The notes beneath the pieces are model-generated. The model ran no database searches. It was not told the DNA's origin and was given only the letters and a program-made list of their open reading frames with translations. The position numbers and the translations under genes are program-made. Positions 5,947 to 31,028 of a stretch of 43,904 nucleotides of DNA are shown here, in pieces. Source of the DNA: Thermoplasmata archaeon (GTDB lineage: Archaea > Thermoplasmatota > Thermoplasmata > Lutacidiplasmatales > UBA184); NCBI GenBank assembly GCA_030041735.1, contig JASIBA010000027.1, positions 1-43,904 of the forward strand, read 5' to 3'. Positions within the stretch are counted from its first letter, which is position 1. Each line of letters begins with the position of its first letter.

Positions 5947-8900
5947 ATGTGGAGTGCCTGCGAATCCGGGTCAATGCGGGCCGGCCCAGTCGTCGTGGCC
6001 TTTCTCCTCGCCTCGCTGACGGCGGTCGGCGGAGCGATTCCCGCGGGGGCCCTCGCCGGCGACCTGACCGCGCGCGCCCACGCGAGTCCCGCGATCGCGA
6101 GCCGCGCCTCCGGCCCGCGGCCCGGCGTGCACGACGCGGCTGCCGGTCCGGCCACCATCTACCCGAACTGCACGGTGTCCCCGGGGGCGCCGCTCGCACG
6201 ATCGGGGGGGGTGTTCACGCTCACCGGTGACTACGCCGGCTCGGTGCTCGACGAGTGCGCCGGAAGCTTCCTCAACGGGGACGGCGCCACGATCACTTCC
6301 TCCGCCGCGCTCCTCTTCGGAGTGAGTCTCAACACCACCGCGAATGTCACCGTCGAGAACCTCACGGTCGCCGGGGATCCGGTCTACGGCGTGGCGGTCC
6401 TGAACACGTCCGATGCGCTCGTGGAGAACGTCAGCGTCGCCGCCGGGGTAGGATCCGGGGTCTACGCGGTCGACGACTCGGGCGTCGTCGTGGACCGGGT
6501 CGGCGCGAACGGCACGACGGGGTACGGCGTGTTCTTCGGCGTCGTGAGCGGCGGGAGGATCGCCGCCTCGTACGCGGAGGGCGGCAGCACAGGCTTCGCG
6601 ATCGAGGGATCCTCCGCCGTCGCGCTCACGAGCTCGAACGGCGACGCGAACCCTGCGGCCGTGGTCGCGGTCGGCAGCACGAACGTCACCCTCGCGGGGG
6701 ACGAGCTCAACGGTGCGGAGGTCGGGATCTACGCGGTCCTCAGCTCGGGCCTCCACGTCCGGGCCGTGAACTCCACGGACTCGGAGTACGGGATCTTCGC
6801 CCGTCAGACCGATGACCTTGCGGTGGCCGACTCGAACTTCAGCGACGCGACGGACGACGGCCTCAACGCGCTCCTCGCGGACGGCCTCGAGCTGAGCGAC
6901 TCGAATCTCTCCGGCGCTGCGGACGTCGGCGTCGAGCTGAACCAGAGCTCGGGCGCCGAGCTCGTGGGCGACCTCGCGAATTCGACGGGGGGCGACGGGA
7001 TCGACGTCCAGGACTCCGCGCAGGTCACGCTCGAGGACTCGTTCGCGTCGGCGGACCGGTACACGGGACTGCGGATCGCCAACTCCTCGGGGGTCGCGAG
7101 CGTCGACGATCACTTCGACGATGAGACCGCGCCCGCGGCGAACGGGACCCTCGTGTCCCACTCGTCGAACGTCTCGGTCACCGGCGACTCCGACGACGGG
7201 GAGCTCGTGGGCCTGCTCGACGCGGGCTCCAGCGGCGTCGCGGTGACCGCGGCGAACGCGAGCCACGACTTCGAGGGATTCGCGTTCGTCAACGACCGGG
7301 GCATCGCGCTGGACGGCCTGTCCGCGTTCCACGACTCCTTCGGCGTGACGCTCGTCGGGTCCACCGACGATTCGGTCGCGGGTACGTCGGTGGTCGATCC
7401 GGTCGCGGAAGTACCGGAGCTGGGGTCCGCCGGATTCGACCTCGAGTTCACCGACGAGGTGACGCTCGCGAACTCCTCGGTGCGCGGGGCCGCCTCGACG
7501 CCGGCGACCTACGGCGTCGAGGACGTCAACGGGACGTCCGACCTGCTCGAGAACCTCTCGGTGAGCGACGTCGACTACGGCGTCTGGGCCAACATCACGC
7601 TGAACTCGACCTTCGACGCGGTCAACGTCTCGGCGGCGACCGACGCCGCCCTCGCGCTCAACGGGACGTTCGGGCTGCTCGTGGAGAACGGGAACTTCTC
7701 CGACAGCGGTGCCGGTTTCACCGCCGGATCGCTGATCGGGGCGGACCAGATCCTGGGGAACACCTTCTACAACGACACGGAGGACTTCGCGTTCGCCGCC
7801 GACCACCTGTTCGACGTCGCGATCTACTGGAACAATTTCATCGACGGGCACGGCTGGTCCGTCCAGGCGGACGGGGCCTCGAACGCCTCGGTCCGCTTCG
7901 CGGACGGGTACCCGGGCGGCGGCAACTACTGGAGCAACTGGACGAGTCCCGACACTCAGCACGGCCCGTACCAGAACCTGTCGGGGCCGGACGGCATCGT
8001 CGACCAGCCGCTCCTCATCAACGGCTCGATCGAGGACCCCTATCCGCTGACCTTCCCCATCTCGCTCTCGGTCCTCAGCGTCACCTTCAACGAGACCGGG
8101 CTGCCCGCCGGAGATGCCTGGACCGTCAACTTCAACGGCACCAACCAGACGACGGTCGGAACGTGGATGTCGTTCCCGATGAACGTCGCCGCGTTCGGGT
8201 TCCCGTTCGACTACTACGTGACGGCTCCGAGCGGCTGGCGCACCGAGCCCTCGGTCGGCCTCGTCGTCACGGACGGCCGCCCGCAGACGGTCACGATCGA
8301 CTTCCTTCCGGACCTCTACCCGGCGACGATCAACGCCACCGGGCTCCCGGCGGGCAATCCGTGGACGATCTCGTTGAACGGGACGTCGTACACCAGCATC
8401 ATGGAGACCCTGGAGCTACCGCTGGCGGACGGGACGTACCCGTTCTCCGTGCTGCCGGTCGCGGGCTACGTCGGCTCGCCGATGTCGGGAGATCTCGTCG
8501 TGCGCGGAGGCCCGGCGTCGCTCAACCTCACGTTCGTCCCGGTCCTCTATCCCATCTCCGTCACCGAGCGCGGACTCCCGGCGGGGACGAACTGGAGCGT
8601 GACCCTGGGCAGCGCGACCCGGTCGTCCACGTCGGCGACGATCTCGTTCGCGGTCGCCAACGGCAGCGTCGCCTTCGCCGTGGCCAACGTCACCGGCTAT
8701 TCGCTCGAAAACGGCGCCGGCTCCCTGACGATCGCCGGCACCGGGGTCGCGATCTTCGTCGGGTTCGTCGCGAACGCCACCTCGCCCTCGTCGGCGACGA
8801 GCAGCCCGCTCTTCTGGGGCCTGCTCGCCGTGATCGGGGTCCTCGCTATCGCGCTCGTCGTCGTCGCGCTCTCGCGCGGCCGCCGGCGCGCCCCTCCGAC

Positions 8901-9047: not shown

Positions 9048-9803
9048 CTACTGCACCGGTCCCATCTCGAGCGATCGGAACGAGAGCACGGCGAGCCCGA
9101 AGGTGATGGCGGCCAGACCGGCGAGGATCGAGGCGCCGATGAGGTCGGACGGCCCGAACGAGTGCGTGAAGCCGTCCCGGACGGTGTTCGCGGCATAGGT
9201 CAGCGGGTTCGCGTACACGATCGCGCGGAGCACCACGGGAGTCTTGGCGGTCACCGGATAGTAGACCGTCGAGATGAAGATCAGGAAGTACTGCAGCAGC
9301 GACTGGATCGTGAAGTAGAGGTTCGCGGACCGGATCCGGCCGCCGATCGCGATGAGGAGACCCCCGAAGCACAGGCTGCCGAGCGCGATCGTGCCGAGGA
9401 TGACGAACCCCTCGAACGGGGAGAGCGGGGTGAGCCCGATGAGCGGGAGCGCCACCAGCACCATGATCCCCACGCCGACGAGGGAGAACAGCAGCGCCGT
9501 CAGCAGGAGCGCGGCGAGATACTCGGCGCGGAGGAACGGACCCGAGAAGATCTGCTCGACCATCGCCCAGCGGCGGTCGAGCCAGAAGATCCGACCTGCG
9601 AGCACGGCGCCGGTGATCATCTGCGACGCGATCATGCCCGGGACGAGGTAGGCCACGTAGGATCCCGAGGCGCCGACCGACGGGATCAGCTGCGAGAACA
9701 TCGTGCCCAGGATCACGATCAGGAACGCCGGCTGGCCGAACATGACGAGCAGCGTGATCGGGTCGAGCGTCGCGACGAAGTTCCGGGCCACGAGCCGGAG
9801 CAC
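9048..9803 (-). CDS. ABC-2 type transporter permease
   Basis: Six predicted TM helices with ABC-2-like sequence ('FLRAEYLAALLLTALLFSLVGVGIMVLV...ANPLTYAANTVRDG'). The GTG at 9803 lies just downstream of the ATPase stop (9815), so the start is uncertain by a few codons. Confidence 0.75.
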   Translation of the reverse strand: MLRLVARNFVATLDPITLLVMFGQPAFLIVILGTMFSQLIPSVGASGSYVAYLVPGMIASQMITGAVLAGRIFWLDRRWAMVEQIFSGPFLRAEYLAALLLTALLFSLVGVGIMVLVALPLIGLTPLSPFEGFVILGTIALGSLCFGGLLIAIGGRIRSANLYFTIQSLLQYFLIFISTVYYPVTAKTPVVLRAIVYANPLTYAANTVRDGFTHSFGPSDLIGASILAGLAAITFGLAVLSFRSLEMGPVQ

Positions 9804-9814
9804 CGGCGGCAGCT

Positions 9815-10714
9815 TCAGGGCGCCCCCGGCGTGCCGGGACCCTCGGTCGCGTCCTCCGACACGAGGGTCACGAACGCTTCCTCGAGCGTCGTCTCCCGGA
9901 CCGAGATGCGCACGAGGTCCAGGTCCGCCCCGTGGGCCCATCGGGACAGCTCGGCGACCAGGTCCTCGGCGTTGGCAGCGCGGAACGTCAGCACCCCGCG
10001 CGCATCCGACAGGATCGCCAGCGACTCCCCGCGGGCCGCGAGCAGGGCCCCGACCGCCCGGCGCTCCGCCTCCGAGAGCGGGCGCTCGAACTCGGCCTCC
10101 ACCGCGCGCGCGCCCCGGTACCGGCGCTTGATCTCCGACGGGGGCCCCACCGCCCGCAGCCGTCCGGCCTGCAGCACGCCGATCCGGTCGCAGAGCTGGT
10201 CGGCCTCCTGGAGGATGTGGGTGGTGAACACGATCGCGAGGCCGCCCCGGGCCCGCATCGCGAGGTAGTCCAGGATGCGGCGCCGCGTCAGCGCGTCGAG
10301 TCCGACCGTCGGCTCGTCCAGGAAGAGGAGCTCCATGTCGTGCATGAGCTCGCGCGCGACCTGGAAGCGACGCCGCTCGCCGCCCGAGAGCCCCCAGGGC
10401 TTGCGCTTGCGCATCGGCCCGAGCTCGAACAGCTCGAGCATCTCCTCGGCGCGACTCTTCGCGACCTCGCGGGGCACCCCCCACAGGAACGCATAGAGCG
10501 TGAGGTTCGTCTCCACCGAGACGAAATCGAGCGACTCGGACTGGAGGACCACGCCGAGACGGCGGCGCTGCTCGCGGCCGGCGTGCCGCAGCTCGGTGCC
10601 GAACAGGTATCCGCGTCCCTCGGTCGGCGGCAGGAGCGTCGTGAGGACGCGGACGGTCGTCGTCTTGCCGGCCCCGTTGCGGCCGAGCAGTCCGAACACC
10701 TCGCCCGGTCGCAC
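9815..10714 (-). CDS. ABC transporter ATP-binding protein (partner of the ABC-2 permease)
   Basis: Walker A 'GRNGAGKTT', signature 'LSGGERRR', Walker B 'LLFLDEPT'. The first canonical start (GTG 10714) sits only 9 codons before Walker A. The conserved N-terminal strands continue in frame upstream with no ATG, GTG or TTG (see findings). Confidence 0.85.
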   Translation of the reverse strand: MRPGEVFGLLGRNGAGKTTTVRVLTTLLPPTEGRGYLFGTELRHAGREQRRRLGVVLQSESLDFVSVETNLTLYAFLWGVPREVAKSRAEEMLELFELGPMRKRKPWGLSGGERRRFQVARELMHDMELLFLDEPTVGLDALTRRRILDYLAMRARGGLAIVFTTHILQEADQLCDRIGVLQAGRLRAVGPPSEIKRRYRGARAVEAEFERPLSEAERRAVGALLAARGESLAILSDARGVLTFRAANAEDLVAELSRWAHGADLDLVRISVRETTLEEAFVTLVSEDATEGPGTPGAP

Positions 10715-10871: not shown

Positions 10872-11831
10872 TCACGGCGGCTCGCCGACGCGCGTGCCCG
10901 CGCGCCCGGCGAGCCCGCGGGCCAGGGAGGGGATGTCGGTGATCACGAGGTACCGGCCGCCGGCCGCGAGAAACTCCAGCCCGGCCGTCACCTTCGGCCC
11001 CATGCTCCCCTCGGCGAACTCGCCCGCGCGCCGGTACCGGCGCAGCTCCGCCGCGTCGACGCGGCCCAGCCAGCGCTGGCGCGGCGTGCCGTACCCCACG
11101 GCCGCTCCCGGAACGTCGGTCACGATCGCGAGGGTGGCCGCCCCGATCTGCGCCGCGACCACGGCGGCCGCTCGGTCCTTGTCGATGACGGCCTCCACGC
11201 CCTCGTAGCGCCCGCCCCCACCCCGCACCACCGGGATCCCCCCTCCCCCGGTGACGACGAACACACAGCTCCGCCCCAGCCGTCCGTCGAGCGCGGCCCG
11301 GACCGCGTCGCCCTCGAGCCACCGCCGGGGCCGGGGGGACGGGACGACCCGCCGCCATCCTCCCCGCGCCGCGTCCTCGCGGAGGGTCCATCCGGCCGTC
11401 CGACGCAGGCGAGCGGCCTCCGCGGCCGAGTAGAACCGGCCGACCGGCTTCGTTGGGTGGCGGAACGCCGGGTCCCGCCGCGCGACCTCCGTGCGGCTCA
11501 CGATCGGGACGACGACGCGCGGGACCCGCGCGGTCCGGAGTGCCGCGCTCAGCTCCTGGGCGATCAGGTAGCCGATCTGGCCCTCCGACTCGGCGTCGAG
11601 CACGTGCATCGGCGGGGGCGGCACCTCCCGCGCCCCCAGCTCCGCCTCGCGGAGGAGGTCCCCGACCTGCGGACCGTTCCCGTGCGTGACGACGAGCTCG
11701 TGGCCCCGCGCGACGATCGCGGCGAGGACGGGGGCGGTCCGGCGCATCTGGCGGGTCGCGTCCGCCCAGGTCCCCGCGTCGTGGGCGCGCTGGATCGCGT
11801 TGCCGCCCAGCGCGACCAGGACGCGCGCCAC
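10872..11831 (-). CDS. arcC: Carbamate kinase
   Basis: 'VLVALGGNAI...VVTHGNGPQVG' and other family-typical blocks, about 319 aa, sitting in an arcA-arcB-arcC context. Confidence 0.9.
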   Translation of the reverse strand: MARVLVALGGNAIQRAHDAGTWADATRQMRRTAPVLAAIVARGHELVVTHGNGPQVGDLLREAELGAREVPPPPMHVLDAESEGQIGYLIAQELSAALRTARVPRVVVPIVSRTEVARRDPAFRHPTKPVGRFYSAAEAARLRRTAGWTLREDAARGGWRRVVPSPRPRRWLEGDAVRAALDGRLGRSCVFVVTGGGGIPVVRGGGGRYEGVEAVIDKDRAAAVVAAQIGAATLAIVTDVPGAAVGYGTPRQRWLGRVDAAELRRYRRAGEFAEGSMGPKVTAGLEFLAAGGRYLVITDIPSLARGLAGRAGTRVGEPP

Positions 11832-11855
11832 CGGATCCGTTCTCCCCCGGGGGCG

Positions 11856-12818
11856 TCAGGGCGCGCGCGGCGGGATCAGCAGCTCGAGGATCGCTTTCTG
11901 GGCGTGGAGACGGTTCTCGGCCTGGTCCCAGATCGCCTGCCGGGTCCCGTCGAGGACCGCGTCGGTTATCTCGAGGCCGCGGTGGGCGGGAAGGTCGTGC
12001 ATCGCGAAGGCGCCGGGCCGGCCGAGGTCGAGGAGCGCGTCGTCGACGGTGAACCCCTGGAAGTCGTGGGTCCTCTTCGCAGCCTCGGCCTCCTCGCCCA
12101 TCGACACCCAGACATCCGTGTAGATCGCATCCGACCCGCGAGCCGCCTGCTTCGGATCGCCCACGATCTCGCTGGTCGCGCCGCTCGCGCGCGTGAACGT
12201 CGCGACCCGGGCGAGGAAGTCGGCGTCCGGACGGTAACCGGCTGGGATCGCCGCCGCGAAGTCGATCCCCAGGATCGCGCTCCCGAGCATCAGCGAGCGG
12301 AGCACGTTGTTCCCGTCCCCGATGAACGCGAGCCGATGGCCCCGGAACTGGCCGGCCCAGCGCTCGCGGAGCGTGAGGAAGTCGGCCGCCGCCTGGCAGG
12401 GATGTTCCCGGTCGTCCAGGGCGTTGATCACCGGGATCGACGCCCACCGCGCGAGCTCCTCCTCGTTCTGCCAACGGAACGCCCGGTAGACCAGCGCGTC
12501 GTAGTAGCGCGACAGCACGCGGGCGGTGTCCGCGATCGTCTCCCCCCGGCCCAGCTGCATCTCGGACGACGAAAGGTAGACCGGGTGCCCGCCGAGGTCC
12601 TCGATCCCGACCTCGAAGGAGCTCCGGGTCCGAGTCGACGGCTTCTCGAAGATCATCGCGACGTCGCGATCCTTCAGCGGGCGGGGGAACTGCCCGGCGC
12701 GCCGCAGCCCCTTCAGCTCCTCGGCCCGCGCGAGGAGGCGCGGAAGGTCGGGAGCCAGGTCGGCGATGGAGAGCAGGTCGCGGTGGGGGGGGTACGCGGG
12801 GGGAGCGGCGGACGCCAT
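11856..12818 (-). CDS. arcB: Ornithine carbamoyltransferase (catabolic by context)
   Basis: 'STRTRSSFE', 'HPCQAAADFLT' and 'DVWVSMGEE' motifs. The usual HCLP motif reads 'HDLPAHRG'. Confidence 0.9.
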   Translation of the reverse strand: MASAAPPAYPPHRDLLSIADLAPDLPRLLARAEELKGLRRAGQFPRPLKDRDVAMIFEKPSTRTRSSFEVGIEDLGGHPVYLSSSEMQLGRGETIADTARVLSRYYDALVYRAFRWQNEEELARWASIPVINALDDREHPCQAAADFLTLRERWAGQFRGHRLAFIGDGNNVLRSLMLGSAILGIDFAAAIPAGYRPDADFLARVATFTRASGATSEIVGDPKQAARGSDAIYTDVWVSMGEEAEAAKRTHDFQGFTVDDALLDLGRPGAFAMHDLPAHRGLEITDAVLDGTRQAIWDQAENRLHAQKAILELLIPPRAP

Positions 12819-12828
12819 CGAACGGTCC

Positions 12829-14133
12829 TCAGCGCCCTGCCCGCTCGATGACGCACGTCATGCAGTGGGCCCCGCCGTAGCCGCCCGTGATCTCGCGCAG
12901 GTTGAGCGGCACCACGTCGATCCCGCGGTCCCGGAGATCGGCCGTGTGCGGGAAGTACCCCCGGCCCTCGCGGAGCTCCTCGCGCTCCTTCCGGACGAGA
13001 GCGAGCAGGGCCCGGTACCGGTGCGGGTCCGCGCGCGCCGCCGTCGCGAGGCCGGCGAGGACCCGGTCGATCTCCTGCTCCACCTCCACCGCGAGGATGC
13101 GGTGGTCCCGGAGGCACAGGAAGTTCGAGGCGTAGCTCATCTGCTCCAGCGTCGAGAGGGGCAGCACCTCAAACCTCTTTTCGGCCAGGAAGTCGAGGAG
13201 CGTCCGTGCGCCCGGCACCCGACGCAGGGGCCCCCCGCCGGTCCGCCGGTACACGTCCACGCGGGCCACGCGCAGCAGGGCCTCGCAGCCGACCACGAGC
13301 CGTTCGCCCGGGACGTTGAGGTACGTGTCGAGGTGCATGTCGATCATCGGATCCGGGTCGTCCCCCGGGATCGCCGGATGCGCGGGCTGGTGGACGACGC
13401 CGACCTCGTCGACCCCGAGCGGTGCCGCGAGCACCTGGCGGACCCCGCTCGCGTTGGTCCGGTCCCCGGTGCCGAGGAGCGCGAACTCGCCGAGCGGCAT
13501 GAAATCGCCGCCCTCGAACGTGCCCGGGCTGCGGACCTCCCCGGCGATCCGAGCGCCCCAGGCCCGGAGGAGGCTGCCGGTCAGGGCGGGCTCCTGGGCG
13601 CGTTGCGGCTTCGACATCCGGCCCAGGACGAAGCCCCCGGGCGTCAGCGCCTGCTGGTCCCGCATGAAGTACAGGTTCGCGAGCGGCGTGTCGAGCACGA
13701 CCTTCGGGAGGATCACGCGCGCGCCGGCGTGCCGCTCGAGACGGACCGAGGGTCGGAGGAGCAGGATGTTGAACAGGGTCTCCGAGTCGAAGCGGTCGAG
13801 GTTGCGCTTCAGCGCGGCTCGCGACCGCTCGACCATGACCTTCGGGCCCGAGTACTGGATCGTCGCGAGGGCGAAGCGGCGCACGCGCTCGACGAGCGCG
13901 GGGTCGCGCGCGGCGACCTCGACCCCGAGCCGCTTCAGGCGCCGGACGGTGATCCCCTCTTCCTCGAGGGCGTGCTCGAGCTCGGCGTGCTCGTGGACGG
14001 CCTCGTCGATGCTGAAGGCGCGCTCGTAGAGGAAGGAGTACGGCTCGGTGAGGCCGAAGAACATCTCGATGCCGGGACGATGGATCAGCACCTCCCGCAG
14101 CCGGTCCCACTCCGCGTGCGCCCGATTCCGCAT
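12829..14133 (-). CDS. arcA: Arginine deiminase
   Basis: N-terminal 'LREVLIHRPGIE', 'GGDFMPLG', and C-terminal 'GGAHCMTCVIER' containing the catalytic-Cys motif. An SD-like GAGGA sits in the 10-nt gap before arcB. Confidence 0.85.
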   Translation of the reverse strand: MRNRAHAEWDRLREVLIHRPGIEMFFGLTEPYSFLYERAFSIDEAVHEHAELEHALEEEGITVRRLKRLGVEVAARDPALVERVRRFALATIQYSGPKVMVERSRAALKRNLDRFDSETLFNILLLRPSVRLERHAGARVILPKVVLDTPLANLYFMRDQQALTPGGFVLGRMSKPQRAQEPALTGSLLRAWGARIAGEVRSPGTFEGGDFMPLGEFALLGTGDRTNASGVRQVLAAPLGVDEVGVVHQPAHPAIPGDDPDPMIDMHLDTYLNVPGERLVVGCEALLRVARVDVYRRTGGGPLRRVPGARTLLDFLAEKRFEVLPLSTLEQMSYASNFLCLRDHRILAVEVEQEIDRVLAGLATAARADPHRYRALLALVRKEREELREGRGYFPHTADLRDRGIDVVPLNLREITGGYGGAHCMTCVIERAGR

Positions 14134-14155
14134 CGCTCCCCTCCGGCCGACGGCG

Positions 14156-15994
14156 TCACTCCGCCGCGGGCACCGCCGGGGGCGGCTCGGCGGCCGGTCC
14201 CGGGTGGGCCGTCGACGCCCCGAGGAAGGTCCGCAGCGCGGAACGGTAGCCCCAGACGAACATCAGCAGGCCGAAGACCGTGAGGGCCACCAGGTCCCAC
14301 GGCAGGTTCAGGATCCCCATCGGCTGCAGGGTGATCGGGTACGTGGGCGGCGTGAGGAAGTTCTCGTACACGAAGAACGGGTCGCCGATGTACGAGATGA
14401 TCCCGATCCCGGCGATGTAGGTCACGATCCACAGGATCCCTTTCGATTCCGCGATCGCGCTCCGGCGGGCCAGGAACGTCAGAAAGTACGCGGGCAGCCC
14501 GACGAACAGGAGGACCGTTCCCAGCAGGGGCATCGCCGCGACGCCCAGCAGCGGGCCGCCGGGCGGCACCACGTAGATCAGGAGCAGCGACGCGACCACG
14601 AGGACGGTCACGATGCTCGCGACCGTGATCGCGCTCTTCAGGGTGCGGAGGGCGGGCGCCGTGAACAGGAAGTAGAGCGGCACCCCGATCAGCATCAGGA
14701 ACACCCCGACGAGGGTCCACGGCCAGGACGCCCAGTAGATCAGCACGGTCGCGAACACGAACGCGATCGGGGTCAGCAGCCACGCGCCGGGCAGCCGGTA
14801 CGGGCGCTCGGCGTGCGGGTCCGTGCGGCGGAGGACCAGCAGCGCGAGGGACGCGGCCCCGTACGGCAGGAGCGTGGTGATCGAGGCGACCAGCGCCACC
14901 TCGGGGAAGCTCGGCAGCGCGATGAGCACGACCCCGGTGAGCACGCTCGCGAAGATCAGCGCCACCGCCGGCGTGCCGAACTTCGGATGGATCCGCGCCA
15001 TGGACTTGAAGAAGAGATTGTCCTTCGCCATCGCGTACGGCATCCGGCCCTGCAGCAGGACCCAGTCGCCGCCGGCGCCGAGGGTCGACAGGATCGCGCC
15101 CACGACCACGATCGTTCCGAGCAGCGCGAGGCCCCAGCCGTCCGCGATGTTGTTGAGGAGCAGCGAGCCGGTGCCGCCCCAGTCGCCCGGGGCGACCCCC
15201 ACCGCGAACCAGCGGATGCCGCCGAGGAACGAGACCGCCACGAGCGCGTAGATCGCCGTCACGATCCCGACGCTGAGGATCGTCGCGCGGGGCAGGGTCC
15301 GCTTGGGGTCCCGCACCTCCTCCGCCGGGATCGAGGCCGCCTCGAACCCCGTGAACGCGAAGAAGCCGAGGCTCATCGCGAACATCACGCCCGTCCAGCC
15401 GAACGGGGAGAACCCGAACATCGTGAAGTTCCCCACCCGAAGGAACAGCAGCCCGATCAGGCCGAAGAGGAGGAGCGGGATCACCTTCGAGAAGGTCGTG
15501 ACGATGGCGAACGCCGAGCCCCACTTGATCCCCGCGATGTTCAGCAGCGTATAGGCCACGAGGAAGGCGAGCGCGATCAGGACCCCGGCGAGGGTCAGCG
15601 TGAGCACGCCCGTGCTGTTGACGAAGGTCAGACCCCCGACGTACGTGCCGAGGTACTCGATGAACACGTCGATGATCGCGGCCGTCCCGATGAACGCGTA
15701 GAGGAAGTAGCCCCAGCCGATCAGGAATCCTCCGAAGTTCCCGAGGGCGCGCCGCGGCAGCGAGTACGGGCCGCCGGTGATCGGGTAGGCCGCGGACAGC
15801 TCCGCGTACGGCAGGGCGAGCAGGATCACGACGATCCCGAGCAGCACGAGGGCGACGATCGCCGCCGGCCCGGCGGTCGAGCCCATCGTCGCGGCGAGTG
15901 CGAAGATCCCCGATCCGATGATCCCGCCCACCGTGATGGAGGTGAGGCCGAGCATCCCGACTTCCCGCTTGAGCTTCGGCTGATCCGCTGGCAT
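14156..15994 (-). CDS. APC-family amino acid permease with extra C-terminal TM helices; candidate arginine/ornithine antiporter by context
   Basis: 'LGLTSITVGGIIGSGIFAL' APC signature and more than 12 TM helices. It is the first gene of the arc operon. Its substrate is inferred only from the neighbourhood. Confidence 0.8.
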   Translation of the reverse strand: MPADQPKLKREVGMLGLTSITVGGIIGSGIFALAATMGSTAGPAAIVALVLLGIVVILLALPYAELSAAYPITGGPYSLPRRALGNFGGFLIGWGYFLYAFIGTAAIIDVFIEYLGTYVGGLTFVNSTGVLTLTLAGVLIALAFLVAYTLLNIAGIKWGSAFAIVTTFSKVIPLLLFGLIGLLFLRVGNFTMFGFSPFGWTGVMFAMSLGFFAFTGFEAASIPAEEVRDPKRTLPRATILSVGIVTAIYALVAVSFLGGIRWFAVGVAPGDWGGTGSLLLNNIADGWGLALLGTIVVVGAILSTLGAGGDWVLLQGRMPYAMAKDNLFFKSMARIHPKFGTPAVALIFASVLTGVVLIALPSFPEVALVASITTLLPYGAASLALLVLRRTDPHAERPYRLPGAWLLTPIAFVFATVLIYWASWPWTLVGVFLMLIGVPLYFLFTAPALRTLKSAITVASIVTVLVVASLLLIYVVPPGGPLLGVAAMPLLGTVLLFVGLPAYFLTFLARRSAIAESKGILWIVTYIAGIGIISYIGDPFFVYENFLTPPTYPITLQPMGILNLPWDLVALTVFGLLMFVWGYRSALRTFLGASTAHPGPAAEPPPAVPAAE

Positions 15995-16040
15995 ACACTA
16001 CCTCGGCACCCCACGCGGCCGGCCAGTACTTGGGTCGGGC

Positions 16041-16056
16041 GTCAAGCCGAGTTGAC
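16041..16056 (-). promoter_or_regulatory. Palindromic operator/UAS GTCAActcggcTTGAC upstream of the arc operon
   Basis: Read on the minus strand: GCGTCAACTCGGCTTGACGC, then 6 nt, then CCCAAGTAC (16034-16026), with the ATG 46 nt after the motif. Four other promoters share this architecture. Confidence 0.55.
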
Positions 16057-16122
16057 GCGGCCGCCGGGCGACCGAGGACGCAACGCCGCAGTCGCAGCGC
16101 CGACTCGCCCCGCTCGCGGGAG

Positions 16123-16707
16123 CTACGCCTGGAGCGGCGCGTCCGCGACCTGCGACTGCGCGGCGAACGCCGCCCGGACCGCCAGGCCGCGGCCGTAGAG
16201 CATGCCGATGCTGACGCCGAAGAGCAGGTCGACCCCGATCAGCACGAGCAGCGTTCCGAGCGGGAGGGTGGTCGGGAAGGTGAACGAGAACAGGTTCGCG
16301 AGCCCGAAGGCCCAGATCTCGACCCCCACCCGGACGAGGAACACGACGAGCGATAGGAGCGGGAGGAGGATCGGCAACCGGTAGTACGTCAGCCCGTCGG
16401 ACCGCTTCTCGAACCGGACCCTTCGACGAACGTGCGGGATCGCGATCCAGGCGGCGGCGACCGGGACCGCCGCGTACGGGGCCAGGAGCGCGAACCCCAC
16501 CGGTCCCCACAGCCCGTAGGCCACGTAGATGGTCGAGGCCGCGAAGAACAGGAACAGCGCGGTCGAGAACGCGCCGTACGCGAAGATCCGCGTGGGCCCA
16601 TACTGGGCGCCCTGCGTGAGCGCGTAGGTCCGCCGGGCCATGACGAAGACGATGATCGCCAGGATCACGAGACCCGAGGTGACCGGCGTGCTGACCGAGC
16701 CCGACAT
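16123..16707 (-). CDS. Hypothetical polytopic membrane protein (possibly DUF1453-like)
   Basis: Five to six hydrophobic helices, a basic loop 'HVRRRVRFEKRSDGLTYYRL', and high GC3. The family assignment is from memory only. Confidence 0.55.
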   Translation of the reverse strand: MSGSVSTPVTSGLVILAIIVFVMARRTYALTQGAQYGPTRIFAYGAFSTALFLFFAASTIYVAYGLWGPVGFALLAPYAAVPVAAAWIAIPHVRRRVRFEKRSDGLTYYRLPILLPLLSLVVFLVRVGVEIWAFGLANLFSFTFPTTLPLGTLLVLIGVDLLFGVSIGMLYGRGLAVRAAFAAQSQVADAPLQA

Positions 16708-16916
16708 CGAGGTTCGGGCGCCCAGTTAGGCCCGACTCAAACCATCTTCGGTCGGGCGATCCTCGTCGCGACACACCGGGCGCCCGCAACGCGGAGCCCA
16801 CTCTAGGTTCCCGCGCCGGGCCTCCCGATCAACGGGCACGATCCCCGACGAAGGGTCCCGCACCGAGGCGCGGCCCTGCGGCAGAATGTCACCCCCGCCC
16901 ACCGCAGGCAATCTCG

Positions 16917-16948
16917 ATTATAATGGGTTAAGGACGAAAACTATATAG
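16917..16948. promoter_or_regulatory. AT-rich island with two TATA-box-like elements (ATTATAAT 16917-16924 and CTATATAG 16941-16948)
   Basis: This is the strongest AT-rich patch in a GC-rich intergenic region. Both elements are near-palindromic and the target transcript is unclear. Confidence 0.45.
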
Positions 16949-17056: not shown

Positions 17057-17072
17057 GTCAAGTCGACTTCAC
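17057..17072 (+). promoter_or_regulatory. Palindromic operator/UAS GTCAAgtcgacTTCAC upstream of the racemase gene
   Basis: Followed by 6 nt, then CCTAAGTAC (17079-17087). The ATG at 17119 lies exactly 46 nt after the motif. Confidence 0.5.
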
Positions 17073-17118
17073 CTCGGCCCTAAGTACCGACGGCCCGGAT
17101 CCATCGACGGGCCTGAGG

Positions 17119-17880
17119 ATGCGGACGATCGGGGTGCTCGGCGGGATGGGCCCGGTGGCCACGGTGGAGTTCCTGCATCGCGTCCTCACCCTCAGTCAGC
17201 GCGAGCACGGCGCCGTGCAGGACGGAGAGTACCCGCCGATCCTCGCCTACTCGCTCTCGCTGCAGGGCTCGAGCGAACAGGGCGTGCGGAGCCCCCGCCT
17301 CCTCGCCCACGAGCTCGTCCATGGGATCGAGGCGCTCCAGCGGGGCGGGGCCGATTTCGTCGTCATCCCGTGCAACACGGCCCATCGGTTCGTGACCCGT
17401 CTGCGGCGGGCCGTGTCGATCCCGATCCTCAGCATCGTCGACCTCACCGTCCGGGAAGTGGCGCACCGCGATCGACGTCGCGTCGGCGTCCTCGCCTCCG
17501 AGAGTTCCCTGGCCGAAGGATTGTACGCCCGACCGCTGCTGTCCGAGCGGATCGTAGCGATCGACCCGACCGGCCCCGAGCGCGGGGAGCTCACCCGCGT
17601 CATTCTCAACGTGATGGGCGGCAGGCGCGCCCTGTCCGATCGCCTCGCGGTCCAGCGGATCGTCGAGCGGATGCGGCGCGTCGACGGGATCGATGGCATC
17701 ATCGTCGGATGCACCGAGCTCTCGCTCGTGCAGCCGGCGAGCGACTACAGCGTGGCCGCCGTCGACGCGATGGACGTGCTCGCCGAGGCCGCGGTCCGGA
17801 CGGCGTACGGCTCCGATGCGATCCCGGGGGCTCCCGGGCTGACGAGCCACGCGTCCGCCGCGCCCATTCTGGCCGGATGA
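17119..17880 (+). CDS. Aspartate/glutamate-type amino acid racemase family protein
   Basis: 'IGVLGGMGP', first catalytic-Cys block 'IPCNTAH', second 'GCTELSL'; about 253 aa. Confidence 0.85.
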   Translation: MRTIGVLGGMGPVATVEFLHRVLTLSQREHGAVQDGEYPPILAYSLSLQGSSEQGVRSPRLLAHELVHGIEALQRGGADFVVIPCNTAHRFVTRLRRAVSIPILSIVDLTVREVAHRDRRRVGVLASESSLAEGLYARPLLSERIVAIDPTGPERGELTRVILNVMGGRRALSDRLAVQRIVERMRRVDGIDGIIVGCTELSLVQPASDYSVAAVDAMDVLAEAAVRTAYGSDAIPGAPGLTSHASAAPILAG

Positions 17881-17931: not shown

Positions 17932-17940
17932 CATAAATAT
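17932..17940 (+). promoter_or_regulatory. TATA-box-like element (CATAAATAT) upstream of the G1 peptidase gene
   Basis: It is the only AT-rich stretch in the intergenic region, centred about 38 nt upstream of the ATG at 17974. Confidence 0.5.
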
Positions 17941-17973: not shown

Positions 17974-18903
17974 ATGCGGAAGAGCACCGTCCTCGCGATC
18001 GTCCTGGCCGGAGTCCTCGCGGCGTCGGCGACCGCCTACGTGGCCTCGGTCGCGATCGCCACGCATGGGGGCGACGACACCTCGCCGCCGGTGGTGCCGG
18101 TGGCCCAGCTCCCTCACATCGGGCAACCGATCTCGGGGGCCACGGCGCTCGGCACCTCGGAGGCGACCGCGGTCGCCTGCCCTGAGCCGACCAGCGAATG
18201 CTCTTCGTCGTTCAACTGGGGCGGCTACATCGTGACGGCCGCCGCGGGCTCGGTCAGCGAGGTCTCCGGTAGCTGGAAGATCCCCGCCGTGACGGGCGCC
18301 GGCGGCACTTCGTGCCCGGACGCGCAGAAGGAGTGGCTGGCGAACGCGGTCTGGGTCGGGATCGACGGGTTCAACGACGGGACCGTGGAGCAGACCGGCA
18401 CGGAATCCGAGTGCTTCTACGGGCACGTCTACTACTACGCTTGGTACGAGTTCTACCCCGGGGCTCCCAAGACGGCTTCGTTCGCCGTCGCCGCGGGGGA
18501 CTCCATCTCGGCCTCGGTTACCTACACGGGGGTCACGCTGGCCGGCGTGCTGAAGTTCCAGACCACGCTGACCGACCTGACGACCGGGAACACGCTCACC
18601 AGCCCGAAGACCGGCGTGAGCGGAGCCGATCGGGACAGCGCCGAATGGATCAGCGAGTCGCCGTACTACGATGGGATCCTCGGGCTCACGCCGGTCTCGA
18701 CCGTGAAGTTCACCGGGGCCTCGGCCTCCATCGGCGGGGTCACCGGATCGATCGGGAGCTGGGGCACGAACGTGTACTGGGCGGTCCTGGTGGACTACTA
18801 CTTCCCCGACGATCCGGTCCTGAAGTACGTCAAGGATCTGCCGTCCGCCCTCAACAAGGCCGGCAACAGCTTCTCCTTCGCATGGAAGGGCTCCGGCCCG
18901 TAG
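17974..18903 (+). CDS. Peptidase family G1 (eqolisin / glutamic peptidase, Peptidase_A4) homolog, membrane-anchored or secreted
   Basis: N-terminal hydrophobic 'VLAIVLAGVLAASATAYVASVAI'. Also 'NWGGY', 'WVGIDGFNDGTVEQTG' (candidate catalytic Gln) and 'SAEWISE' (candidate catalytic Glu). Confidence 0.8.
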   Translation: MRKSTVLAIVLAGVLAASATAYVASVAIATHGGDDTSPPVVPVAQLPHIGQPISGATALGTSEATAVACPEPTSECSSSFNWGGYIVTAAAGSVSEVSGSWKIPAVTGAGGTSCPDAQKEWLANAVWVGIDGFNDGTVEQTGTESECFYGHVYYYAWYEFYPGAPKTASFAVAAGDSISASVTYTGVTLAGVLKFQTTLTDLTTGNTLTSPKTGVSGADRDSAEWISESPYYDGILGLTPVSTVKFTGASASIGGVTGSIGSWGTNVYWAVLVDYYFPDDPVLKYVKDLPSALNKAGNSFSFAWKGSGP

Positions 18904-22417: not shown

Positions 22418-22433
22418 GTCAAGGTCACTTGAC
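22418..22433 (+). promoter_or_regulatory. Palindromic operator/UAS GTCAAggtcacTTGAC upstream of the GNAT gene
   Basis: Perfect 5+5 palindrome. After 6 nt comes the AT-rich TTCATTTGC (22440-22448). The ATG at 22480 lies exactly 46 nt after the motif. Confidence 0.5.
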
Positions 22434-22479
22434 GGGCCCTTCATTTGCCGCGTGGCGGCTCCCCCCGATCGGGGACGCC

Positions 22480-23118
22480 ATGAGGCCGGAGCCGGGCGGG
22501 GAACCGACGGGGTCCCGCGATCCCGTGGAGGTGGACGCGCTGCGCGACGGGACCCGCGTACGGATCCGCCCGCTCCAGACCGGCGATCGACCAGGAGTCG
22601 AGGAGTTCGCGCGGCGGCTCTCGCTGGAAGCGGTCGAGCTCCGGTACTTCGTCCCGCTCCCGCCCGCGCGCGTCGTCGAGGAGCTGCTCGGCTCGGACCG
22701 GGTCACCGGCCGATACGCGGCGCTCATGGAGACCGTCGGGCCGGGGCCCGTCCGGATCGTGGGGCACGCGGAGTACGTTCGACCGAAGGACGGACGCGCG
22801 GTGGCCGAGGCGGCCTTCGTGATCGCGGACTCGTTCCAGGGTCGGGGTGCCGCCACGCTCCTCCTCTGGCACCTGGCGGCCGTGGCCCGGTCCGAGGGCA
22901 TCCGGACCCTGGAAACGGTCGCGCTCCGGACGAACGCGGCCATGCTGCAGGTCTGTTTCGACGCCGGGTACCCCTTCTCGGTCGCGCTCGAGGAGGACAC
23001 GGTGCGGGTCTCGCTGGACATCTCGGGGGAACGACAGACCGCGCTCTCCTCCCTCGCCGACCGCCCGGAGGCGTTCCTCGAGCGGCGGGCTCGGCCCTCC
23101 ACTGGCCCGGCGGCCTGA
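22480..23118 (+). CDS. GNAT-family N-acetyltransferase (Pat-like acetyltransferase domain)
   Basis: 'IRPLQTGD...', 'FVIADSFQGRGAATLLLWHLAAVARSEGIRTL'. The ATG at 22480 is preferred over the TTG at 22429, which lies inside the palindrome. Confidence 0.75.
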   Translation: MRPEPGGEPTGSRDPVEVDALRDGTRVRIRPLQTGDRPGVEEFARRLSLEAVELRYFVPLPPARVVEELLGSDRVTGRYAALMETVGPGPVRIVGHAEYVRPKDGRAVAEAAFVIADSFQGRGAATLLLWHLAAVARSEGIRTLETVALRTNAAMLQVCFDAGYPFSVALEEDTVRVSLDISGERQTALSSLADRPEAFLERRARPSTGPAA

Positions 23119-23170: not shown

Positions 23171-23509
23171 CTACTCGACGAGCGATCGGACGAGCTGCAC
23201 AAAGGGAGCGGGGACGAGGGGGAGCCCGACCGGATGGACGCCACCCCCCGCGACGGCCAGCGGATCGCGCGAGCCCACGACCACGAGCTCGGGCCCGGCG
23301 AGCTCGCCGCGCAGGTAGGACCGGAGGGTCGGACAGTGTCCGCTGTTGGCCGCGGCCACGATGACGCGGACGCCCCGGAGCCCCGCGCGTTGGGCCGCGT
23401 CGACCTCCGGTGCGAACCGGGTGGGGACCCCGTAGGCGTCGAGCAGGTCCACGATCGCCCGCCCAAGGCTCGGGGTCTCGCCCACGACGAGGACCCGGGC
23501 CCCGTTCAT
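23171..23509 (-). CDS. Small receiver-like (pseudo-receiver) protein lacking the phospho-acceptor Asp
   Basis: The alternating beta/alpha pattern 'RVLVVGETPSLGRAIVDLL...VRVIVAAANSGHCPTL...ELVVVGSRD...' resembles CheY-like REC domains. The acidic pocket (GE instead of DD) and the Asp (Ala) are replaced. High GC3. Fold assignment is inference. Confidence 0.55.
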   Translation of the reverse strand: MNGARVLVVGETPSLGRAIVDLLDAYGVPTRFAPEVDAAQRAGLRGVRVIVAAANSGHCPTLRSYLRGELAGPELVVVGSRDPLAVAGGGVHPVGLPLVPAPFVQLVRSLVE

Positions 23510-23546
23510 ACCGGCCGCCGTCGCGCCCCGCCGATTTAGCCCGCCC

Positions 23547-23562
23547 GTGAACTTTACTTGAC
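23547..23562. promoter_or_regulatory. Palindromic site GTGAActttacTTGAC (minus strand: GTCAAgtaaagTTCAC) in the divergent pseudo-receiver/kinase intergenic region
   Basis: In the minus orientation it is followed by 7 nt, then CTAAATC (23539-23533), with the ATG at 23509 37 nt after the motif. The AT-rich spacer CTTTAC could serve as the TATA element for the plus-strand kinase gene (GTG 23589). Confidence 0.5.
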
Positions 23563-25086: not shown

Positions 25087-25102
25087 GTCAATTCGGCTTC
25101 AT
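25087..25102 (+). promoter_or_regulatory. Degenerate copy of the palindromic site (GTCAAttcggcTTCAT) upstream of the DUF981-like gene
   Basis: Followed by 6 nt, then CCCAAGTAG (25109-25117), nearly identical to the arc promoter's CCCAAGTAC. An ATG at 25150 lies 47 nt after the motif. Confidence 0.45.
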
Positions 25103-25226
25103 GGAGCGCCCAAGTAGCGCGGGGCGCGATCCGTCGGCCGGTGAGACCCATGACGGAGCCGAGAACCTGCCCGAAGACCGAGCGATCGATCGCGGACCGA
25201 GGGACCGAGGACGGGAGGGAAGGACG

Positions 25227-26030: not shown

Positions 26031-26066
26031 ACGGTCGACCCGGCGCGCGGCGCAACCCCTTCCTCC

Positions 26067-27229: not shown

Positions 27230-27348
27230 TGGCCCCATCGTGCGCCGGGCGAGCCGACCTCGCGCACGCGGGGGGACCCGGCCGGGCGACGGGGGGGCGA
27301 GTGGGGATCGGACCGGGGAGTCATACGCGCGCGGCGTGTCGGCGTGGC

Positions 27349-30975: not shown

Positions 30976-30997
30976 GGCGGGCGAAGGATAAGCGTTA

Positions 30998-31009
30998 GTT
31001 TATATAAAC
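30998..31009. promoter_or_regulatory. Perfectly palindromic TATA box GTTTATATAAAC shared by two divergent, apparently leaderless genes
   Basis: Its centre lies 28.5 nt from the minus-strand ATG (30975) and 25.5 nt from the plus-strand GTG (31029). The whole intergenic region is 53 bp. Confidence 0.7.
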
Positions 31010-31028
31010 ATGCACCTATGCCTCCCAC

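Follow-up and report, generated by a model that had tools for sequence, protein, structure and literature searches.

Bacterial arc operons are controlled by regulators of the Crp/Fnr family, namely ANR in Pseudomonas and ArcR in Bacillus, Staphylococcus and Enterococcus. These proteins bind as dimers to a 5-N-5 palindrome whose centre is about 40-45 bp upstream of the arcD/arcA start, and arginine fermentation is turned on when respiration is limited. The boxes recognized by Crp/Fnr-type proteins read TTGAT-N4-ATCAA or TGTGA-N6-TCACA. In Mycobacterium, the cytoplasmic redox/oxygen-type sensor kinases DosS and DosT act with the palindrome-binding regulator DosR, whose autoregulated regulon is rich in universal stress and fermentative/dormancy functions. 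DosS and DosT sense through a GAF-haem domain and DosR carries a LuxR-type HTH. Archaeal activators usually bind immediately upstream of the BRE, as described for Ptr2, for TrmBL1 at gluconeogenic promoters and for TFB-RF1. Among archaeal arc clusters, we know of an assigned regulator only for arcRACB of Halobacterium. This regulator, ArcR, is encoded beside the arc genes and is attributed to the IclR family in the part of PMC2841640 that cites Ruepp and Soppa 1996.

Few response regulators of archaea bind DNA, and these have hardly been characterised (PMC5847659). The FilI-FilR1/FilR2 system of Methanosaeta harundinacea associates a kinase with DNA-binding regulators for catabolic control (PMC3991700; domains in PMC5847659). 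FilR1 contains a DUF1724 middle domain and is concerned with the methanogenesis genes of a methanogen. A DNA-binding output, present in few archaeal response regulators, is also found in LtrK/LtrR of Methanococcoides burtonii and in the haloarchaeal Bat-type proteins (PMC5847659).

The locus described here lies in a 43,904-nt stretch of DNA that was analysed over its full length and is called the window below (71% GC; Thermoplasmata, apparently of the order Lutacidiplasmatales). The GC content and some domain names had first pointed to a haloarchaeon, but this origin was rejected because the close relatives are all Thermoplasmata MAGs. As judged from sequence comparison, the 16-bp palindrome found 5' of five promoters in the window is a genuine regulatory site and has been conserved among uncultured Thermoplasmata of acid soils. 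One of these promoters is that of an arc operon, which neighbours genes for an ABC ATPase and a 194-aa membrane protein. A dimeric-type palindrome placed near -45 of this operon would follow the same logic as ANR and ArcR. The motif GTCAA-N6-TTGAC nevertheless differs from their boxes in half-site and spacing, the basal machinery is archaeal, and no Crp/Fnr, cNMP-binding or HTH_Crp domain was detected among the about 40 window ORFs scanned. The same ORFs, arc neighbours included, contained no IclR domain: whereas Halobacterium ArcR is an IclR-type one-component regulator, the regulator linked to the site in the window belongs to a two-component pair.

The closest parallel to this pair is FilI-FilR1/FilR2, in which the regulator likewise consists of a receiver, a winged helix and, between them, an uncharacterised domain, and which also includes a stand-alone receiver-type protein. 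In contrast to FilR1, the middle domain of the window regulator has no Pfam match, its winged helix is of the DUF7347/HTH_20 type, its host is a member of the Thermoplasmata and its presumed targets are arc and stress genes. LtrR displays the reversed order, HTH-REC, and the Bat-type architecture also differs. Similarly to the sites of Ptr2, TrmBL1 and TFB-RF1, the palindrome appears to end directly 5' of the BRE in fixed phase with the TATA box, but the protein families and motifs are unrelated and activation is here what we infer. The likeness to DosR would be functional only and depends on the proposed signal sensing, as domains and motif differ.

The palindrome and its promoter geometry

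All five copies of GTCAA-N6-TT(G/C)A(C/T) (GTCAANNNNNNTTSAY) in the window are located in promoters and are grouped within 9 kb (Table 1). This count compares with 0.08 expected from dinucleotide shuffles and was reached in none of 100 shuffles. The gap-free alignment of the five upstream regions reported in the first-pass annotation was reproduced, as were its palindrome-to-ATG distances of 46, 46, 46, 37 and 47 nt. Its claim that the window contains no further copy was upheld by a relaxed search allowing two mismatches to GTCAA-N6-TTGAC, in which only four extra matches (1783, 2924, 29462 and 43829) were obtained, corresponding to the background level. The match at 1783, the one among the four whose context was inspected, is not followed by the A/W box defined below. 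The motif is absent from the promoters with a strong TATA box near 17932, 30998 and 42169, as had been stated. Since these five sites are also those from which the pattern was built, the statistic obtained within the window is circular; the unchanged pattern was thus applied to other DNA.

Table 1. Position of the palindromes, the associated boxes and the genes of interest in the window.
Feature	Coordinates	Strand	Details
Palindrome GTCAACTCGGCTTGAC, arc operon promoter	16041-16056	-	Exact pattern match
Degenerate TATA-like box CCCAAGTA, arc promoter	16027-16034	-	+7 to +14 after palindrome in the 47-site ungapped alignment
6 nt (gcccga) at BRE position, arc promoter	16035-16040	-	Between palindrome and box
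arc operon	10872-15994	-	Pfam AA_permease_2, ADI, OTCace, AA_kinase
Amino-acid permease, arc operon	14156-15994	-	ATG 46 nt 3' of palindrome
Arginine deiminase, arc operon	12829-14133	-	
Ornithine carbamoyltransferase, arc operon	11856-12818	-	
Carbamate kinase, arc operon	10872-11831	-	
Racemase promoter	17057-17086	+	Palindrome GTCAAGTCGACTTCAC 17057-17072; box CCTAAGTA 17079-17086
Asp/Glu/hydantoin racemase family gene	17119-17880	+	Pfam Asp_Glu_race 2.8e-31; ATG 46 nt after palindrome
GNAT promoter	22418-22447	+	Palindrome GTCAAGGTCACTTGAC 22418-22433; box TTCATTTG 22440-22447
GNAT acetyltransferase gene	22480-23118	+	Pfam Acetyltransf_1; ATG 46 nt after palindrome
Pseudo-receiver promoter	23533-23562	-	Palindrome GTCAAGTAAAGTTCAC 23547-23562; box GCTAAATC 23533-23540
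Receiver-like protein, 112 aa	23171-23509	-	ATG 37 nt after palindrome; predicted leaderless
Cytoplasmic PAS-PAS-HisKA-HATPase histidine kinase	23589-25061	+	Pfam HisKA 2.1e-14, HATPase_c 1.2e-28, PAS domains
DUF981-side promoter	25087-25116	+	Palindrome GTCAATTCGGCTTCAT 25087-25102; box CCCAAGTA 25109-25116
26-codon upstream ORF	25150-25230	+	ATG 47 nt after palindrome; TGA overlaps DUF981 ATG (ATGA)
DUF981 membrane protein (MSFTTF...)	25227-26030	+	Pfam DUF981 1.6e-25
Response regulator, candidate palindrome binder	26135-27229	+	REC, central alpha/beta domain, C-terminal ArsR-like winged helix (DUF7347/HTH_20)

Sites from the window and from related loci were compiled in an alignment of 47 sites, many of which were chosen by the A/W rule, i.e. 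an A at +10 followed by A or T at +11 after the palindrome. The element is composite and ungapped: the palindrome is followed by 6 nt that are GC-rich and occupy the BRE position, by a degenerate TATA-like box of 8 nt and then by the start codon. The half-sites GTCAA and TTGAC are two-fold symmetric, with a spacer of 6 nt and a centre-to-centre distance of 11 bp, and the variants GTGAA, TTCAC and CTGAC occur. Over the 47 sites, the half-site columns are 85-100% conserved (G1, T2 and A15 in 47/47, A4 and A5 in 46/47), whereas the spacer and the flanks are variable, the spacer showing a central CG preference. Such conserved half-sites set against a variable spacer and flanks support the earlier suggestion that a single dimeric factor may recognize the element.

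The AT box was previously described as starting at a variable 7-9 nt after the palindrome. Its register is in fact fixed, from +7 to +14. An A is found at +10 in 43 and an A or T at +11 in all of the 47 sites, counts that are not independent because many sites were selected by the A/W rule. By our own tally, both are present in 24 of the 27 exact-pattern sites. The sites with an A/W box are located 35-54 nt upstream of start codons. For about 20 of them, the start codon follows the palindrome at 35-39 nt, which places it about 26-29 nt beyond the centre of the box. This is the canonical archaeal TATA-to-start distance (~26-29 nt from the box centre) and the corresponding mRNAs are therefore predicted to be leaderless. 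For about 26 sites, the start codon comes 40-54 nt after the palindrome (mostly 42-51), leaving a short leader. In the window, the arc, racemase and GNAT leaders carry GAGG or GGGG shortly 5' of the ATG.

Given this geometry, the AT box is probably the TATA box. As the 3' end of the palindrome is 6 nt away from the box, the palindrome centre would lie at about -45 from the predicted transcription start. The fixed register with the TATA-like box and the start codons supports the initial placement of the site just upstream of the BRE/TATA. A role as an RNA hairpin is unlikely because the palindrome is 5' of the predicted TATA box.

The possibility that the motif promoters have weak TATA boxes needing an activator was dropped: in a crude test of the 8-mers between -50 and -15, promoters with the motif had a maximum AT content of 5.18 and those without it 5.10 (p = 0.72). 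An Rfam scan of the window matched no RNA family and the single ARAGORN tRNA call in the window was not confirmed by Rfam. No match was obtained in a plasmid megablast with the arc-racemase intergenic region. Folding of the RNA of the region 5' of the racemase palindrome gave a z-score of -0.85.

Conservation of the site in related Thermoplasmata

With the pattern left unchanged, 22 distinct exact sites were found in 34 related Thermoplasmata loci (543 kb) versus a mean of 0.4 and a maximum of 2 in Markov resamples. In 49 unrelated archaeal and bacterial arcA loci (752 kb), the same pattern gave 4 sites, each of them in an AT-rich genome. The site is kept 5' of orthologues whose protein identity ranges from 92% down to 43%. 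These orthologues are those of the arc permease, the racemase, the GNAT, the pseudo-receiver, the DUF981/uORF unit, a Zn-ADH, EamA and DoxX. At the arc permease, the site is present with at most one mismatch in eight related loci and degenerate copies with an unchanged register are found at the arc promoter of five more, so that the conservation at orthologous arc promoters suggested as a check by the first-pass annotation was found in multiple loci. Three arc loci of the same clade are devoid of the site and a fourth has it only at the cassette described below. Among the other targets, one racemase orthologue (58% identity) is preceded by GTCAAGCAAAGTTCAC, GNAT orthologues carry the site in six loci, and a site 3' of the kinase gene, equivalent to the copy at 25087, is found in five.

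Additional genes with the site upstream in the relatives code for Zn-ADH, SDR, class IV aminotransferase, EamA, DoxX, Usp and CBS proteins. The regulon is wider than the five genes initially proposed. It had also been called undescribed, and a search of the literature with several spellings of the motif retrieved no paper containing it.

A kinase-regulator cassette linked to the site

The cassette is composed of the pseudo-receiver, the PAS histidine kinase, in some cases the uORF-DUF981 unit, and the response regulator, which combines a REC domain with an ArsR-like winged helix. The site is present in 16/16 cassettes, including two with no arc operon in view. The kinase and/or the regulator adjoins arc in 11 loci, the kinase itself being syntenic with arc in 11 loci, and kinase and regulator genes are adjacent or split only by DUF981 in 12 loci. 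The pseudo-receiver site is intergenic, with the pseudo-receiver on one side and the histidine kinase on the other, and its position and register are kept in 16/16 cassettes.

The 112-aa pseudo-receiver was labelled receiver-like from its sequence, by eye; it has no Pfam match and lacks the acidic pocket, VVGETP replacing VDDDP. Its orthologues were detected in 11 loci by tblastn. In the histidine kinase, the best PDB sequence matches of the second PAS domain are MmoS (1.3e-15), NifL (7.4e-10) and Aer (1.7e-8). A 12-residue segment of this domain was aligned with the FAD-PAS matches (compared feature: WSG...NR..G). In sequence, the second PAS domain resembles FAD-binding redox-sensing PAS domains. 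Downstream of the kinase, the ATG at 25150 had been taken as the start of the DUF981-like gene. Its frame differs from that of DUF981 and contains stops, and this ATG opens the 26-codon upstream ORF. The true DUF981 ATG is at 25227, close to the point where the domain match sets in at profile position 3. At the place equivalent to that of the upstream ORF, four related loci also have small ORFs, of 25-29 codons.

The receiver of the response regulator (Response_reg 3.9e-30; 41% identity to the NtrC1 receiver) has a complete phospho-acceptor set, D11-13, D55, T83 and K105, which is invariant or nearly so in 45 homologues. Its C-terminal domain scored 28.8 bits with HTH_20 (cut-off 27) and 41.4 bits with DUF7347 (cut-off 27.6), and gave weak PDB sequence matches to NmtR, SrnR and ArsR. 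Its input presumably comes from the receiver. An AlphaFold2 model of the regulator (mean pLDDT 85.8) has a wHTH topology at residues 251-329, with four helices, a beta-hairpin and a final helix (mean pLDDT of about 85-95 per 10-residue block). Foldseek searches with the full model were dominated by receiver-domain matches and were uninformative for the output domain. At the middle domain, a DUF835 assignment was precomputed for one regulator homologue. At least 572 homologues exist, and the named ones are all from Thermoplasmata. The start of the recognition helix, DDSPK, is at least 95% conserved among 120 homologues, paralleling the conserved half-site. In a paralogue group, DDSPK is replaced by DDTS(K/L), and no palindrome site was found near these paralogues in 82 kb. 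An alternative palindrome shared near the DDTS paralogues, which would amount to covariation, was also sought with perfect 5-mers and spacers of 4-8 nt and none was found.

Three HTH proteins of the window had been put forward as candidate binders. The response regulator stands as the only one syntenic with the sites in the relatives; for the genes at 31029-31373 and 42204-42602, none of the related arc loci contains a counterpart. The palindrome is most likely bound by the neighbouring response regulator, which would control arginine fermentation together with a small number of stress and amino-acid genes.

Proposed circuit and alternatives

It is somewhat probable, in our estimation, that the palindrome is the operator of a small clustered regulon of Lutacidiplasmatales type, at which the response regulator binds 5' of the BRE and activates transcription. 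The cytoplasmic PAS histidine kinase would phosphorylate the regulator, a dimer of which would then bind the two half-sites via its ArsR-like winged helices. Next to the BRE, the bound dimer would help TFB/TBP to load. Activation is favoured since a site immediately 5' of the BRE is at the usual activator position. The targets would be the arginine deiminase operon, yielding ATP and ammonia from arginine, the racemase and the GNAT, together with the Zn-ADH, SDR, class IV aminotransferase, EamA, DoxX, Usp and CBS genes in the relatives. The pseudo-receiver and the uORF-DUF981 unit, as targets of their own system, would provide feedback. The signal may be redox or oxygen, perceived via the FAD-type second PAS. 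We propose only tentatively a lineage-wide circuit in which a flavin-type redox kinase would drive, through a REC-wHTH activator at a BRE-touching palindrome, both arginine fermentation and a stress programme, with the pseudo-receiver and the uORF-coupled membrane protein as feedback elements.

The link between regulator and site comes from synteny and self-targeting, and the same pattern would be expected if the cassette were merely a target of another factor. Operator and regulon would then be unchanged and the binder would be another dimeric protein encoded elsewhere, for example of the Lrp/AsnC, MarR or TrmB type. The permease, aminotransferase, racemase and dehydrogenase targets would suit a global amino-acid regulator, and the palindrome is missing from the promoter of the response regulator gene, a separate one of classical appearance (AAAG-N4-TAAT-like). 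Seven site-bearing arc loci have no cassette in view, although many cassette-less loci sit on short contigs or break off close to arc. However, no further regulator gene shows conservation in the neighbourhood of the sites, and the occurrence of the site in every cassette, even in the two without a nearby arc operon, makes a binder from elsewhere rather unlikely. The response regulator could also be a repressor that sits against the BRE and blocks TFB, with de-repression upon a change of signal. The closest relatives of its DNA-binding domain, the ArsR/SmtB-family proteins, are classically repressors, the TATA boxes of the motif promoters are no weaker than average, and a bound dimer could clash with TFB as the proximal half-site ends 6 nt from the TATA-like box. 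Most characterised archaeal repressors nevertheless bind over the TATA box or the start site, neither of which is overlapped here, and a strict single register over 47 sites is more in keeping with a protein contact to the basal machinery than with simple occlusion; we regard repression as improbable.

Very improbable is an origin of the shared sequence in a promoter cassette copied by duplication or recombination, or in chance, with no factor recognizing it. The sites are clustered, and three window promoters combine the palindrome with a near-identical box (CCCAAGTA, CCTAAGTA). Yet the conservation is confined to the half-sites and the A/W of the box, while spacer, flanks and leader differ in every copy. 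The sites also persist 5' of orthologues diverged to 43-60% protein identity, and their numbers contrast with those expected by chance (0.08 for the window, 0.4 for the relatives).

If activation by the response regulator holds true, this protein would to our knowledge join a very small group of archaeal response regulators for which the operator is defined, the promoter geometry is fixed and a regulon is predicted. As far as we know, the crosstalk of bacterial-type two-component systems with the eukaryote-like TBP/TFB machinery is largely unresolved. A precise 16-bp operator, a fixed BRE/TATA register, 47 aligned sites and a single well-supported candidate regulator are supplied here, and the operator set and candidate regulator make this question testable with purified proteins despite the uncultured hosts. 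For the soil order Lutacidiplasmatales, the arginine deiminase pathway was proposed as a key trait in acid tolerance (PMC9287336). The site provides a regulatory context for this pathway and suggests that it may undergo redox-type switching together with stress and amino-acid genes. The system would then represent an archaeal counterpart of ANR/ArcR or DosR.

Architecture of the palindromic promoter element

The pattern GTCAANNNNNNTTSAY has five distinct matches in the 43.9-kb window (16041, 17057, 22418, 23547 and 25087), for an expectation of 0.08 in dinucleotide shuffles. Permitting two mismatches added just four window matches, which is the background level. The single relaxed match whose context was inspected, at 1783, is not followed by an A/W box (A at +10 and A or T at +11, counted from the 3' end of the palindrome). 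The gap-free alignment of the five upstream regions proposed in the first-pass annotation, oriented to the downstream gene, was reproduced and its palindrome-to-ATG spacings (46, 46, 46, 37 and 47 nt) were right. The ATG at 25150, previously taken as the DUF981 start, lies in another frame. It begins a 26-codon ORF, and the TGA of this ORF overlaps the DUF981 start codon, an ATG at 25227. The surrounding genes were named from Pfam matches.

Genes surrounding the palindromic sites in the window
Feature	Position	Strand	Basis
Amino-acid permease, arc operon	14156-15994	-	Pfam
Arginine deiminase (arcA)	12829-14133	-	Pfam
Ornithine carbamoyltransferase	11856-12818	-	Pfam
Carbamate kinase	10872-11831	-	Pfam
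Asp/Glu racemase family	17119-17880	+	Pfam
GNAT acetyltransferase	22480-23118	+	Pfam
112-aa receiver-like protein (pseudo-receiver)	23171-23509	-	without Pfam match
PAS-PAS-HisKA-HATPase kinase	23589-25061	+	Pfam
DUF981 membrane protein	25227-26030	+	Pfam
Response regulator, REC + winged helix	26135-27229	+	Pfam

The aligned sites define a composite element without gaps. The half-site GTCAA, now and then with G at position 3, is followed by a spacer of six variable bases with C/G preferred centrally and by the second half-site TTGAC, in which T12, T13 and G14 are at times C. Six G+C-rich bases and the 8-mer YYCAWGTA come next. A is found at +10 in 43/47 and A/T at +11 in 47/47 compiled sites, but since many of these were chosen by this very rule, the fairer figure is that of exact-pattern sites, 24 of 27 of which have both (own tally). 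The 8-mer resembles an archaeal TATA box (TTTAWATA) with G+C substitutions; by their geometry, the six bases ahead of it would sit at the BRE position. At about 20 sites, including those of the pseudo-receiver, the aminotransferase, one EamA gene and some GNAT and alcohol dehydrogenase (ADH) genes, the start codon lies 35-39 nt past the palindrome. Counted from the box centre this is 26-29 nt, which is the canonical spacing of TATA box and start, and leaderless mRNAs are therefore predicted for this class. At about 26 others (arc permease, racemase, GNAT, ADH, DoxX, small ORF) it lies at 40-54 nt, mostly 42-51, and GAGG or GGGG stands close ahead of the ATG in the arc, racemase and GNAT leaders of the window. 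From the same TATA-to-start geometry, the palindrome would run from about -53 to about -38 and so abut the BRE on its upstream side.

An upstream ORF of 25-29 codons precedes DUF981 in the window (25150-25230) and in the related loci L008 (16162-16250), L016 (~6384-6470), L022 (~16234-16320) and L081 (after 8974). It starts 40-47 nt past the palindrome and is rich in R, P, T, D and E, with a poorly conserved sequence. Its TGA overlaps the DUF981 ATG (ATGA) or, in L008, ends 6 nt ahead of it. This ORF may be a leader peptide translationally coupled to DUF981.

Other features were observed in the window. Two paralogous Peptidase A4 (acid glutamic peptidase) genes, at 17974-18903 and 27229-28116, lie on either side of the regulon region, which fits an acidophilic, peptide-using lifestyle. 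An AT-rich island at 16905-16945, which precedes the racemase palindrome by 110-150 nt, carries two TATA-like boxes (gattataatgg, aactatataga) in DNA that is otherwise 71% GC; it has no Rfam match, and the 102 nt that follow it show no more stable folding than shuffled sequences (z = -0.85). The interval 30976-31028 is a divergent promoter region that contains a palindromic TATA element, GTTTATATAAAC. On one side of it lies the gene of a distantly M29-like aminopeptidase (29866-30975, -; Pfam score under the curated cut-off), on the other a gene of the ArsR family (31029-31373, +). ARAGORN predicted an 80-nt tRNA-Arg (CCG) at 963-1042 (-) with the anticodon at position 40, and Rfam found no tRNA in the window at the gathering threshold; either the prediction is spurious or the gene is atypical and may contain an intron.

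Conservation in related Thermoplasmata

The arginine deiminase of the window is 96% identical to a protein of a Thermoplasmata MAG, and the closest ~30 loci all belong to uncultured soil or peat Thermoplasmata of 65-75% GC. Judging by their names, several isolates (AcS, SubAcS, UBA184) appear to be Lutacidiplasmatales (TMEG), an acid-soil order of ~69% GC for which arcA was proposed as an acid-tolerance gene (PMC9287336). The window does not come from a haloarchaeon. Since the pattern was derived from the window, it was applied unchanged to other DNA, the related DNA being sampled as ~20-kb pieces around arcA or the regulator. It gave 22 distinct exact sites against 0.4 expected in 34 related loci (543 kb), and 4 sites, all in AT-rich genomes, in 49 unrelated arcA loci (752 kb). 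Allowing at most one mismatch with A at +10 and A/T at +11, 48 oriented matches were obtained in the window and its relatives; metagenome loci supply additional sites.

The arc permease is preceded by a site with at most one mismatch in eight related loci (L002, L008, L009, L012, L015, L019, L022, L052) and by a degenerate site in the same register in five (L011, L013, L018, L024, L054). Arc loci of some clade members (L014, L021, L025) have no site. Upstream sites were also found for orthologues of the racemase (L015), GNAT (L008, L010, L016, L022, L083, L090), the pseudo-receiver and the uORF-DUF981 unit. Outside the window set, they precede genes for Zn-dependent alcohol dehydrogenase (four loci), EamA transporters (two), DoxX (two), a short-chain dehydrogenase, a class IV aminotransferase, a universal stress protein and a CBS-pair protein. 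The downstream orthologous proteins are just 43-92% identical, and the half-sites are near invariant while spacer and flanks differ in each copy. Such alignments are what selection on a protein-binding site would be expected to produce. The element is very likely a real operator that is conserved and keeps a fixed spacing to the core promoter.

In L007 (~9630-10000) and L017 (9606-10000), the arc permease has shrunk to a short remnant, a ~25-aa N-terminal stretch fused to part of the C-terminus. Upstream, palindrome and TATA-like box persist (in degraded form in L007), and arcA is therefore probably now driven directly from the former permease promoter.

The adjacent response regulator as candidate binder

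In 11 loci the kinase and/or response regulator adjoins the arc operon, and the pseudo-receiver and GNAT are often present there as well. In a second set of loci, fetched via regulator homologues and not via arcA, the pseudo-receiver-kinase-(DUF981)-regulator cassette is conserved, including in L083 and L084 where no arc operon is in view, and the palindrome is still present at the pseudo-receiver promoter. All 16 loci in which pseudo-receiver and kinase are both in view carry a site in standard register between these two genes, with at most one mismatch in most (L013 has two, in the promoter-proximal half). For two other HTH genes of the window (31029-31373, 42204-42602), none of the related arc loci has a counterpart. 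A conserved CAACCC(C/T)TTCC element precedes the start of the response regulator gene by 75-90 nt (window ~26040-26065, L008, L016). Between this element and the gene stands a promoter that looks classical, of the AAAG-N4-TAAT type, so the regulator appears to be transcribed from a promoter of its own that lacks the palindrome.

The receiver of the regulator carries the acidic pocket, D55, T83 and K105. In its AlphaFold2 model (mean pLDDT 85.8), the receiver is followed by an alpha/beta domain in the middle and a winged helix at the C-terminus. The output domain was assigned to the ArsR/SmtB superfamily by Pfam (DUF7347, HTH_20) and weak PDB matches (NmtR, SrnR, ArsR). Members of this superfamily are dimers binding inverted repeats. 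Across 120 homologues, conservation is at least 95% where the recognition helix begins (GLDDSPK..FHLRKL), which would match the conserved half-site. In a paralogous REC-wHTH family of 41-46% identity from metagenomes (L089, L093 with two copies, L094, L096, L097, L098), this helix begins DDTS(K/L), not DDSPK. No GTCAA-type site was found in 82 kb of DNA flanking these paralogues, and tblastn detected no pseudo-receiver or kinase beside them. They may use a different operator; since a shared motif of their own was looked for and not found, the covariation would be only weak evidence for the regulator-site link. Overall, the response regulator looks competent as a DNA-binding factor and is probably the protein that binds the palindrome.

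Sign, signal and relation to known systems

The position immediately upstream of the BRE is the usual place of archaeal activators, and because the site sits there, activation is favoured and considered reasonably probable. Repression, with the regulator at the palindrome blocking TFB, is kept as an alternative since the TATA-like boxes of the motif promoters are, in a crude comparison, not weaker than those of other promoters of the clade and since the output domain belongs to a family of classical repressors; it is considered less probable. Taken together, a conserved operator to which the adjacent response regulator binds as an activator stands at slightly better than even chances.

In bacteria, arc genes are controlled by Crp/Fnr-type ArcR or ANR, and by ArgR. 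To our knowledge, only one archaeal arc cluster has an assigned regulator, an IclR-type ArcR (PMC2841640). No IclR or Crp/Fnr domain was found among the window ORFs scanned, and a literature search for the palindrome motif turned up no paper containing it. In the archaeal two-component census, DNA-binding response regulators are rare; entries include FilR1 (REC-DUF1724-wHTH), LtrR (HTH-REC) and the haloarchaeal Bat type, and REC-DUF835 proteins of Methanomicrobia and Thermoplasmata are listed without DNA-binding assignment (PMC5847659). With its predicted signal, binder and sign, the present system would resemble the bacterial ANR/ArcR and DosR circuits in its working but differ from them in its parts, with a response regulator family specific to archaea and a promoter of archaeal type.

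Among PDB sequences, the second PAS domain of the kinase (23985-24400) is closest to the FAD-binding PAS domains of MmoS (3ewk), NifL (2gj3) and Aer (8dik), with E = 1e-15 to 2e-8 and the WSG...NR..G segment aligned. This similarity suggests, as a hypothesis, that the domain may be a flavin sensor of redox or oxygen. Such a signal would fit a fermentative, ATP-yielding pathway together with the Usp, CBS, DoxX and dehydrogenase genes.
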